Source of the DNA: a virus
Taxonomy: Duplodnaviria > Heunggongvirae > Uroviricota > Caudoviricetes
Length of the DNA: 5,662 nt
Strand: one strand, 5' to 3'
IMG/VR virus record: IMGVR_UViG_2651869781_000001
The notes beneath the pieces were generated by a model. The model saw only the letters and a program-made list of their open reading frames with translations, did not search any database and had not been told where the DNA came from. Positions 1,622 to 3,963 of this stretch are shown here, in pieces. The translations under genes were made by a program, and so were the position numbers. Position 1 is the stretch's first letter; each line of letters begins with the position of its first letter.

Positions 1622-1947
1622 AAACCTTCCGCTGGAAAGTGAAACCCGGTATGGATGTGGCTTCGGCCCCTTCTGTAAGAAAGGTGCGCTTTGGTGATGG
1701 TTATTCCCAGCGAGCGCCTGCCGGGCTGAATGCCAACCTGAAAACGTACAGCGTGACGTTTTCTGTTCCCCGTTGGGAGGCCACGGCGCTTGAGTCGTTT
1801 CTGGCTGAGCACGGGGGCTGGAAATCCTTTCTGTGGACGCCGCCTTATGACTGGCGGCAGATAAAGGTGACCTGCGCAAAATGGTCGTCACGGGTCAGTA
1901 TGCTGCGTGTTGAGTTCAGCGCAGAGTTTGAACAGGTGGTGAACTGA
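1618..1947 (+). CDS. M: Tail tip assembly protein M (109 aa)
   Basis: ORF 1618-1947, 109 aa (MKTFRWKVKPGMDV...FEQVVN), matching the size and sequence I recall for lambda gpM. GGAGGTGG at 1607-1614 a few nt upstream of the ATG. Start overlaps the H stop (ATGA); stop overlaps the L start (TGATG). Confidence 0.9.
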   Translation: MKTFRWKVKPGMDVASAPSVRKVRFGDGYSQRAPAGLNANLKTYSVTFSVPRWEATALESFLAEHGGWKSFLWTPPYDWRQIKVTCAKWSSRVSMLRVEFSAEFEQVVN

Positions 1948-2645
1948 TGCAGGATATCCGGCAGGAAACACTGAATGAATGCACCCGTGCGGAGCAGTCG
2001 GTCAGCGTGGTGCTCTGGGAAATCGACCTGACAGAGGTCGGTGGAGAACGTTATTTTTTCTGTAATGAGCAGAACGAAAAAGGTGAGCCGGTCACCTGGC
2101 AGGGGCGACAGTATCAGCCGTATCCCATTCAGGGGAGTGGTTTTGAACTGAATGGCAAAGGCACCAGTACGCGCCCCACGCTGACGGTTTCTAACCTGTA
2201 CGGTATGGTCACCGGGATGGCGGAAGATATGCAGAGTCTGGTCGGCGGAACGGTGGTCCGGCGTAAGGTTTACGCCCGTTTTCTGGATGCGGTGAACTTC
2301 GTTAACGGAAACAGTGACGCCGATCCGGAGCAGGAGGTGATCAGCCGCTGGCGCATCGAGCAGTGCAGCGAACTGAGCGCGGTGAGTGCCTCCTTTGTAC
2401 TGTCCACGCCGACGGAAACAGATGGCGCTGTTTTTCCGGGACGTATCATGCTGGCCAACACCTGCACCTGGACCTATCGCGGCGATGAGTGCGGTTATCA
2501 CGGTCCGGCGGTCGCGGATGAATATGACCAGCCAACGTCCGATATCACGAAGGATAAATGCAGCAAATGCCTGAGCGGTTGTAAGTTTCGCAATAACGTC
2601 GGCAACTTTGGCGGCTTCCTTTCCATTAACAAACTTTCGCAGTAA
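1947..2645 (+). CDS. L: Tail tip protein L (232 aa), with C-terminal cysteine cluster
   Basis: ORF 1947-2645, 232 aa (MQDIRQETLNECTRAEQ...SINKLSQ), same length and sequence as recalled for lambda gpL. AGGTGG at 1934-1939, 7 nt upstream of the ATG. C-terminal Cys at residues 173, 182, 205, 208 and 212. Confidence 0.9.
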   Translation: MQDIRQETLNECTRAEQSVSVVLWEIDLTEVGGERYFFCNEQNEKGEPVTWQGRQYQPYPIQGSGFELNGKGTSTRPTLTVSNLYGMVTGMAEDMQSLVGGTVVRRKVYARFLDAVNFVNGNSDADPEQEVISRWRIEQCSELSAVSASFVLSTPTETDGAVFPGRIMLANTCTWTYRGDECGYHGPAVADEYDQPTSDITKDKCSKCLSGCKFRNNVGNFGGFLSINKLSQ

Positions 2646-2650
2646 ATCCC

Positions 2651-3394
2651 ATGACAGAGACAGAATCAGCGATTCTGGCGCACGCCCGGCGATGTGCGCC
2701 AGCGGAGTCGTGCGGCTTCGTGGTGAGAACGCCGGAGGGGGAAAGATATTTTCCCTGCGTGAATATCTCCGGTGAGCCGGAGGATTATTTCCGGATGTCG
2801 CCGGAGGACTGGCTGCAGGCAGAGATGCAGGGTGAGATTGTGGCGCTGGTCCACAGTCATCCCGGTGGTCTGCCCTGGCTGAGTGAGGCCGACCGGCGGC
2901 TGCAGGTGCAGAGTGATTTGCCGTGGTGGCTGGTCTGCCGGGGGACGATTCACAAGTTCCGCTGTGTGCCGCATCTCACCGGGCGGCGCTTTGAGCACGG
3001 GGTGACGGACTGTTACACGCTGTTCCGGGACGCTTACCATCTGGCGGGGATTGAGATGCCGGATTTTACGCGGGAGGATGACTGGTGGCGTCACGGTCAG
3101 AATCTCTATCTGGATAATCTGGAGGCAACGGGGCTGTATCAGGTGCCGTTGTCAGCGGCGCAGCCGGGCGATGTGCTGCTGTGCTGCTTTGGTTCATCGG
3201 TGCCGAATCATGCCGCTATTTACTGTGGTGACGGCGAGCTGCTGCACCATATTCCTGAACAACTGAGCAAACGAGAGAGGTATACCGACAAATGGCAGCG
3301 ACGCACACACTCCCTCTGGCGTCACCGGGCATGGCACGCATCTGCCTTTACGGGGATTTACAACGATTTGGCCGCCGCATCGACCTTCGTGTGA
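2651..3394 (+). CDS. K: Tail tip assembly protein K, JAB/MPN (JAMM) metallopeptidase-like N-terminal domain plus NlpC/P60-like C-terminal domain. Long form 247 aa from ATG 2651; the lambda reference annotation as I recall it is 199 aa, corresponding to the internal ATG at 2795.
   Basis: ORF 2651-3394 has no stop from 6 nt after the L stop. A complete JAMM signature is visible: Glu19 in an ESCGF context (2705-2707) and His68-x-His70-x7-Ser78-x2-Asp81 (VHSHPGGLPWLSEAD, 2852-2893). A downstream Cys (VTDCYTLF) and His-rich stretch (PNHAAIYCGDGELLHH) are consistent with an NlpC/P60 fold. The internal ATG at 2795 has GGAGG at 2779-2783; the ATG at 2651 has no obvious Shine-Dalgarno sequence but sits 5 nt after the L stop. 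Confidence 0.85.
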   Translation: MTETESAILAHARRCAPAESCGFVVRTPEGERYFPCVNISGEPEDYFRMSPEDWLQAEMQGEIVALVHSHPGGLPWLSEADRRLQVQSDLPWWLVCRGTIHKFRCVPHLTGRRFEHGVTDCYTLFRDAYHLAGIEMPDFTREDDWWRHGQNLYLDNLEATGLYQVPLSAAQPGDVLLCCFGSSVPNHAAIYCGDGELLHHIPEQLSKRERYTDKWQRRTHSLWRHRAWHASAFTGIYNDLAAASTFV

Positions 3395-3963
3395 AAACGG
3401 GTGCTGAAGCCATCCGGGCGCTGGCCACACAGCTTCCGGCGTTTCGTCAGAAACTGAGCGACGGTTGGTATCAGGTACGGATTGCCGGGCGGGACGTCAG
3501 CACGTCCGGGTTAACGGCGCAGTTACATGATACTCTGCCTGATGGCGCTGTGATTCATATTGTTCCCAGAGTCGCCGGGGCCAAGTCAGGTGGCGTATTC
3601 CAGATTGTCCTGGGGGCTGCCGCCATTGCCGGATCATTCTTTACCGCCGGAGCCACCCTTGCAGCATGGGGGGCAGCCATTGGGGCCGGTGGTATGACCG
3701 GCATCCTGTTTTCTCTCGGTGCCAGTATGGTGCTCGGTGGTGTGGCGCAAATGCTGGCACCGAAAGCCAGAACTCCCCGTACACAGACAACGGATAACGG
3801 CAAACAAAACACCTATTTCTCCTCACTGGATAACATGGTTGCCCAGGGCAATGTTCTGCCGGTTCTGTACGGTGAAATGCGCGTGGGGTCACGCGTGGTT
3901 TCTCAGGAGATCAGCACGGCAGACGAAGGGGACGGTGGTCAGGTTGTGGTGATTGGCCGCTGA
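3292..3963 (+). CDS. I: Tail tip assembly protein I (223 aa): N-terminal ubiquitin-like (beta-grasp) region ending in Gly-Gly, followed by a Gly/Ala-rich hydrophobic C-terminal segment
   Basis: ORF 3292-3963, 223 aa (MAATHTLPLASPGMARICLYG...QVVVIGR), same length and sequence as recalled for lambda gpI. Overlaps the 3' end of K by 103 nt in a different frame. Purine-rich GAGAGAGG at 3273-3280 upstream of the ATG. Confidence 0.88.
   Translation: MAATHTLPLASPGMARICLYGDLQRFGRRIDLRVKTGAEAIRALATQLPAFRQKLSDGWYQVRIAGRDVSTSGLTAQLHDTLPDGAVIHIVPRVAGAKSGGVFQIVLGAAAIAGSFFTAGATLAAWGAAIGAGGMTGILFSLGASMVLGGVAQMLAPKARTPRTQTTDNGKQNTYFSSLDNMVAQGNVLPVLYGEMRVGSRVVSQEISTADEGDGGQVVVIGR

Follow-up and report, generated by a model that had tools for sequence, protein, structure and literature searches.

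The product of gene K in a lambda-like phage very probably has 247 residues and a complete JAB domain, and is shortened in the lambda reference by one missing base

In the lambda reference record NC_001416, the tail gene K is annotated as a protein of 199 aa whose start is equivalent to ATG 2795 of the DNA analysed here, as the original prediction had stated. In this DNA the reading frame of K is open further upstream, which raises the question of where K begins and of what the additional codons encode. The whole stretch that was analysed (the window, 5662 bases) comes from a lambda-like phage of E. coli, holds its tail-tip module (H'-M-L-K-I-J'), and contains the following features around K:

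11-1621: gene H, 3' part (ORF list)
1618-1947: gene M (ORF list)
1947-2645, plus strand: gene L, minor tail or tail tip protein L, 232 aa (Pfam Phage_tail_L, 337.8 bits; ORF list)
2646-2650, plus strand: spacer between L and K, 5 nt, ATCCC (sequence)
2651-3394, plus strand: gene K at full length, 247 aa, predicted JAB/JAMM and NlpC/P60 domains (ORF list, Pfam, AlphaFold2)
3292-3963, plus strand: gene I, ORF of 223 aa (ORF list; Pfam Lambda_tail_I)

The stop codon of L is the TAA at 2643-2645, gene I and the 3' end of K overlap in different frames, and the region downstream of I is where lambda has J. Several lambda-like phages share 98.3% identity with positions 2400-3500, a stretch that matches 269 phage records. 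The K product matches phrog_30 over residues 1-247 (3.4e-163), which places it in the lambda gpK / tail tip assembly protein K family, and it has the position of that family between L and I, both in the window and in distant loci. A 423-aa ORF on the minus strand (620-1891), antisense to H and M, was taken as a chance open frame.

The first start codon past the upstream in-frame stop is ATG 2651-2653, from which the frame is open to TGA 3392-3394. The original prediction, that K is open for 48 codons upstream of its conventional start, back to an ATG lying 5 nt past the L stop, was therefore right in its coordinates. The discussion below turns on two features:

2651-2794, plus strand: 48 N-terminal codons that are missing from the 199-aa lambda annotation (Pfam, conservation, AlphaFold2, profile search)
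2795-2797, plus strand: internal ATG, Met49, the annotated lambda K start at 14276 (homologue alignment)

By themselves, 48 open codons are weak evidence of coding, with (61/64)^48 at about 0.1. The stop or frameshift in related phages that would speak against the long frame is not seen in 86 of 88 related loci, where the 247-aa ORF from the ATG is intact. These 86 close loci represent 71 distinct coding sequences, in which the variable sites of nt 1-144 are distributed 8/1/21 over codon positions 1/2/3 (chi-square ~20.6, 2 df, against an even split), the pattern of a translated frame. The 80 closest viral-contig loci are all 97-100% identical, a range fit for the codon-position test and not for deep conservation, which was assessed with 50%-identity cluster representatives instead.

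Close homologues of K (15 proteins of 242-249 aa with 68-97% identity, from Escherichia, Shigella, Salmonella, Citrobacter, Edwardsiella and Yersinia) can be aligned from residue ~5 onward and are strongly conserved over residues 8-47. Across these 15, down to 68% identity, 17 of the 48 N-terminal residues are invariant, E19-S20-C21-G22 included. The deeper alignment comprises 94 homologues that cover most of the protein length, mostly 50%-identity cluster representatives, with identities down to 32%. Here Glu19 is conserved in 93 of the 94, and Gly22 and Asn38 in all of them; the upstream codons are thus conserved among K homologues, a point on which the original prediction had staked its reading. 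A median of 20 residues lies ahead of the Glu, so that the N-termini of the homologues match the long form, a match that is partly due to selection because the set was limited to homologues of 228-271 aa. Among the best 150 hits, nearly all matches below 60% identity begin at query residues 2-15. The gene order M-L-K-I is retained in the loci of homologues with 51, 37 and 35% identity, where the start of K overlaps the stop of L by 4, 4 and 1 nt, respectively, which places the beginning of K at the end of L throughout the family.

The N-terminal part of K, with the 48 codons, matches a known domain:

2660-2962, plus strand: JAB / Prok-JAB domain (PF14464), residues 4-104 (Pfam, 53.1 bits; profile search; Foldseek)
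2852-2893, plus strand: zinc-ligand part of the JAMM motif, H68-S69-H70-x7-S78-x2-D81, HSHPGGLPWLSEAD, residues 68-81 (sequence)

The JAMM motif is E-x(n)-H-[ST]-H-x7-S-x2-D, and K contains it as E19, H68-S69-H70, S78 and D81. That Glu19, in an E-S-C-G context, completes this signature had been proposed beforehand, and the residue was found as described, encoded by GAG 2705-2707 within A-E-S-C-G. His68, His70 and Asp81 are conserved in 94 of 94 homologues, Ser78 in 89, with Thr in the other 5. Against Pfam Prok-JAB, which has a gathering cut-off of 25 bits, the 247-aa protein scores 53.1 bits (residues 4-104 on profile positions 4-112 of 114). The 199-aa form reaches 23.3 bits, below the cut-off and on profile positions 63-112 only, and the 48 N-terminal residues alone 24.3 bits, on positions 3-51. 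The expectation that the short form lacks the Glu and holds an incomplete JAB domain is borne out by these scores. In a profile search of PDB sequences K matched 2KKS (1.5e-14), 2KCQ (2.9e-13) and PfJAMM1 (~5e-12), and the K family stretch “prEaCG”, with Glu19, aligns to PNEACG in 2KKS, PEEGCG in 2KCQ and SVEVCG in PfJAMM1.

An AlphaFold2 model of K, computed from the 94-sequence alignment, has a mean pLDDT of 97.3. The N-terminal elements of the model are a helix (3-15) and two strands (21-27 and 30-36), corresponding to helix 1 and strands 1-2 of JAB. They are followed by a helix (51-60), a strand that ends at His68 (62-69), a helix that follows Ser78 and holds Asp81 (79-88), and a further pair of strands. 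The 48 residues would thus provide 3 of about 9 JAB secondary-structure elements as well as the glutamate, and in the model the JAB fold includes them as an integral part. With this predicted structure as the query, the top solved matches in Foldseek are PfJAMM1 (5LD9/5LDA), 2KKS, AMSH, CSN5 and Rpn11, the match to PfJAMM1 having a probability of 1.00, a TM of 0.66-0.67 normalised to the target, and an rmsd of 2.7-2.8 A. Model and structural matches together point to a JAB/MPN fold.

On five independent grounds (domain, close homologues, distant homologues, codon positions and synteny), the 48 upstream codons are, by the sequence evidence, coding. The JAMM motif and the role of its Glu were defined by Ambroggio et al. 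(2003): in AfJAMM this residue holds the catalytic water and is the proposed acid-base catalyst, and mutation of the motif Glu in Csn5 abolished activity. From residues E19, H68, H70, S78 and D81 we infer that the N-terminal domain of K is a putative JAB/JAMM zinc (iso)peptidase. The NCBIfam desampylase model NF041370 scores 28.3 bits on K, against 130 bits for the equivalog, so that K has a related JAB domain and is not a member of the desampylase equivalog.

Upstream of ATG 2651 there is no Shine-Dalgarno-like purine run, and initiation is therefore probably coupled to termination of L. Such termination-reinitiation coupling is also suggested by the 5-nt distance between the two genes, together with the stop/start overlap in distant relatives. 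Translation of K would thus begin at ATG 2651, with initiation probably coupled to the end of L 5 nt before it. The search for promoters between L and K gave no promoter-like sites. Further downstream, ahead of the internal ATG, the coding sequence contains a structural element:

2766-2783, plus strand: GC-rich hairpin TCTCCGG-TGAG-CCGGAGG, 7 bp, which contains the GGAGG at 2779-2783 (terminator-type search, fold)

The surrounding 51-nt region (2755-2805) folds at -21.4 kcal/mol (z = -2.5). A terminator at 2766-2783 was considered and rejected, as the site lies inside conserved coding sequence; it is better read as an mRNA hairpin.

The original prediction had pointed to GGAGG 2779-2783 as the better Shine-Dalgarno sequence and suggested that both products could exist. 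The 247-aa protein would then be accompanied by a 199-aa, NlpC/P60-only form started at Met49, with separate roles for the two. In favour of this, the GGAGG is present, 11 nt upstream of ATG 2795, 84 of 86 close relatives have ATG at the codon of Met49, and phage versions of K with the NlpC/P60 domain only have been described (Iyer et al. 2006). Other observations do not support it. In the distant homologues position 49 is Ile in 60 of 94 and Met in 15, the GGAGG is accounted for by the codons of Pro43-Glu44 (CCG GAG G), Pro43 being conserved, and the 11-nt spacing exceeds the optimum. In addition, the GGAGG lies within the 7-bp hairpin, in a strongly folded region, and the hairpin would mask it. 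Judged from the model, a 199-aa form would also carry half to two-thirds of a JAB domain, a piece predicted to be non-foldable. No evidence of a conserved short isoform was found among the 94 homologues, and we consider a pair of products unlikely. A literature search, with the lambda ribosome-profiling paper outside its coverage, found no experimental N-terminus or size of gpK, and a CRISPRi essentiality paper (PMC10695390) makes no statement on the start of K.

With translation of K from ATG 2651 as the preferred reading, the shorter lambda annotation has to be explained. In NC_001416/J02459, K is located at 14276-14875, and 148 unannotated bases follow L. An alignment to lambda, recommended earlier as a check for a 1-nt indel, revealed that the reference is out of frame, with a single G missing after base 14266, 9 nt ahead of the annotated start of lambda K:

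2785, plus strand: equivalent of the G that is missing from J02459/NC_001416 (alignments; MutaMouse variant)

Here the lambda reference reads GGAGGC-TATT versus GGAGGCGTATT, and in the alignment it has GGAGGC-TATTTCC where relatives have 14 bases. In the form without the G the lambda stretch is GGAGGCTATT; the form GGAGGCGTATTTCC is present in four separately deposited lambdas, LC730321 (Lambda_AGU), PV340536, KT232076 and OM418626 (imm434), each of which has an uninterrupted 247-aa ORF. Over 1.6 kb, the additional G after 14266 is the sole difference between NC_001416 and these four records. In OM418626, genes M and L are numbered 1 lower than in NC_001416, and the coordinates of K are the same. 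A 202-base stretch of the reference aligns to 203 bases at 99.5% identity in DE3, lambda imm21, lambda h434 imm21, HK629, HK630 and others, as would be expected if they all had this additional base. At least 30 complete E. coli genomes contain the corrected 203-base stretch at 100% identity. For the MutaMouse lambda-gt10 transgene, in which variants were called against a manually assembled lambda-gt10 reference, “14266 C>CG” is listed without comment as a constitutional variant (PMC6760142, Table 5). The same table also has 137 AG>A, in line with the lower numbering of M and L in OM418626, and the reference may have a further single-base discrepancy at lambda position 137.

In the lambda reference the ATG adjacent to L opens a frame-shifted ORF of 76 aa. 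The 199-aa annotation arose because the missing G splits the ORF and the next in-frame ATG (Met49) was taken as the start. The missing G is a property of the J02459/NC_001416 record, not of the phage. A programmed frameshift in lambda K was considered and rejected, as the frame of resequenced lambda is continuous. Residues 1-48 of K also match positions 1-48 of phrog_7305, a family of ‘unknown function’ with 76 positions; as this is the length of the frame-shifted lambda ORF, the family probably derives from split or mis-sequenced K genes. Gel compressions are common at GC-rich hairpins. The hairpin at 2766-2783 lies directly 5' of the missing base, and we infer a reading error of 1982 caused by gel compression. 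No explicit discussion of a 247-aa lambda K, or of a reference error at 14266, was found in the literature search.

The missing G might instead be a true mutation of the 1982 lambda cI857 Sam7 stock or of some lambda lineages, which would mean that some lambda stocks make a split K yet assemble tails. Laboratory lambda is known to carry an stf frameshift, and two ‘lambda’ records of 2023, OR974322 and OR474059, also lack the G. However, OR974322, from chicken cloacal swabs, is identical to NC_001416 over 1602 bases, which suggests a reference-guided consensus, and the gap in both records may reflect reference-guided assembly or carry-over of control DNA. Moreover, K is an essential tail gene, the G is present in imm434, imm21, DE3, lambda-gt10, Lambda_AGU, PV340536 and KT232076, and the position of the gap, directly 3' of a GC hairpin, would be typical of gel compression. 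A true mutation therefore appears very unlikely. That the 199-aa form is the real K, with the upstream 48 codons a chance frame or an untranslated leader, agrees with the historical lambda annotation and with the better-looking Shine-Dalgarno sequence of the internal ATG, but is improbable in the extreme given the strong purifying selection and domain homology over the 48 codons, the start of distant homologues at the L stop, and the dependence of the lambda annotation on a 1-nt gap that is not found in resequenced lambda. Confidence is high in a product of 247 aa whose JAB domain is complete and in the explanation of the reference gap, a judgement that does not extend to the enzymatic role.

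The 247-aa protein is already known from databases, and its JAB-NlpC/P60 architecture, with the predicted action on gpI, from the literature of 2003-2006. Lambda K was listed among proteins with a JAMM motif in 2003 (Ambroggio et al. 2003), and K (“TAPK”) was described as a JAB plus NlpC/P60 protein that adjoins gpI (Iyer, Burroughs & Aravind 2006). The K protein of the window is an exact match to RefSeq WP_052931951.1, a “C40 family peptidase” of 247 aa. Corrected lambda K, also 247 aa and sharing a 90% cluster with the K protein of the window, is found on at least 1000 contigs, and the 199-aa K (AAA96551 / TIPK_LAMBD) on 194. The annotations differ between phage records: K has 247 aa in phage 434 (OL657226) and in lambda PV340536, and 199 aa in NC_001416, OM418626 and OR974322. 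In NC_049955.1 (RefSeq), K is a 223-aa protein (824-1495) with a start equivalent to GTG 2723 of the window, and in KT232076.1 a 211-aa protein (814-1449) with a start equivalent to GTG 2759. Both GTG codons are downstream of Glu19, so that these annotations also lack the JAMM glutamate.

What remains is a matter of curation, since NC_001416 and UniProt TIPK_LAMBD still give 199 aa and some RefSeq phages 223 aa. Users of NC_001416, J02459 or UniProt P03729 in cloning, structure prediction, interaction screens or proteomics work with a gpK that lacks one-third of the JAB domain and the Glu. For functional work on gpK the 247-aa protein should be used, and it is a precondition for any test of processing of the ubiquitin-like gpI by K.

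The second domain of K lies within the part that is common to both annotations:

2981-3322, plus strand: NlpC/P60 (C40) peptidase domain (PF00877), residues 111-224 (Pfam, 50.5 bits)

The match extends over the whole profile (1-105 of 105), with a cut-off of 23 bits. The putative catalytic residues are Cys121 (3011-3013), His187 (3209-3211) and His199 (3245-3247), each of which is conserved in 93 of 94 homologues. In Foldseek and profile searches the C-terminal half of K matches MepS/Spr, CwlO and other NlpC/P60 enzymes.

A candidate substrate is encoded by the adjacent gene. gpI consists of a ubiquitin-like N-terminal domain, a Gly-rich linker and a C-terminal plug domain, and the ubiquitin-like Pfam family Lambda_tail_I matches residues 14-97 (profile 2-83 of 83). 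The N-terminus was described as a ThiS/MoaD-like ubiquitin fold with a conserved terminal glycine (Iyer et al. 2006). In the window the domain ends in AGAKSGG, with Gly100-Gly101 at 3589-3594. The annotated starts of gpI differ, being ATG 3292 in the style of the lambda reference (223 aa) or the equivalent of GTG 3391 (190 aa; NC_049955, PV340536). The 190-aa form matches only positions 26-83 of the Lambda_tail_I profile, an indication that this annotation truncates the beta-grasp domain. From the sequence, the true start of gene I would be ATG 3292 or ATG 3331 (Met14), both of which are within the 3' end of K in the other frame.

gpK is necessary for assembly of the lambda tail and was detected in virions neither by mass spectrometry nor by cryo-EM; its F-pyocin counterpart was also undetected in particles. 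A protein that is required for assembly and absent from the virion is likely to act during assembly. We suggest that K serves in assembly without entering the virion, as a protein of 247 residues with two predicted peptidase domains, and that the N-terminal, ubiquitin-like domain of gpI would most likely be its substrate, the cut falling behind the C-terminal Gly-Gly. Release of this domain by the JAB domain of K was predicted by Iyer et al. (2006). In published tail-tip structures gpI is visible from residue 101 in one map and from residue 134-135 in others, and the ubiquitin-like domain has never been seen. The start at 101 is just past Gly100 of the G100-G101 pair. It is possible, and put forward here tentatively, that the JAMM domain of K is active in the manner of a deubiquitinase and matures the tail tip by removing the ubiquitin-like domain of gpI at G100-G101. 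Such removal would account for the starts of gpI at 101 or 134-135 in the cryo-EM maps. The missing domain fits cleavage by the JAMM site of K; disorder explains it equally well. A literature search found neither an experimental test of gpI cleavage by K nor biochemical data on gpK (zinc binding, isopeptidase activity). It is speculation that the peptidase domains of K account for the cleavage of gpH to gpH*. If K does process gpI, the two proteins would be a virus-encoded pair of ubiquitin-like protein and JAMM enzyme acting in virion assembly.

Among known systems, lambda gpK (TIPK_LAMBD / NP_040598; TAPK) is the closest. Its DNA is ~95% identical to the window over the whole K gene, and the position between L and I and the JAB plus NlpC/P60 architecture are the same. 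The reference entries for lambda gpK comprise residues 49-247 only (199 aa), with one G missing, whereas the window has no such gap. MepS/Spr-type C40 peptidases share the Cys-His-His residues and the fold of the C-terminal domain of K. In contrast to this type, K lacks both a signal peptide and a cell-wall-binding module and was not found in virions, which makes a role of K on peptidoglycan during entry unlikely.

The prokaryotic JAMM/MPN+ proteins (PfJAMM1, 5LD9/5LDA; HvJAMM1, the ‘desampylase’; 2KKS; 2KCQ) have the same E...HSH-x7-S-x2-D motif and fold as the N-terminal domain of K, and like it are compact, with a domain of ~105 residues. PfJAMM1 is a Pyrococcus enzyme that removes the ubiquitin-like SAMP2 (5LD9/5LDA). 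In common with JAMM enzymes that remove ubiquitin-like proteins, K has a partner of this kind, since the neighbouring gene encodes a beta-grasp ubiquitin-like domain with a terminal Gly-Gly (gpI). Unlike PfJAMM1 and HvJAMM1, K has its JAB domain fused to NlpC/P60 and works in virion assembly. Its putative ubiquitin-like substrate is part of a cis fusion with a structural plug domain, whereas that of the PfJAMM1/HvJAMM1 type is conjugated.
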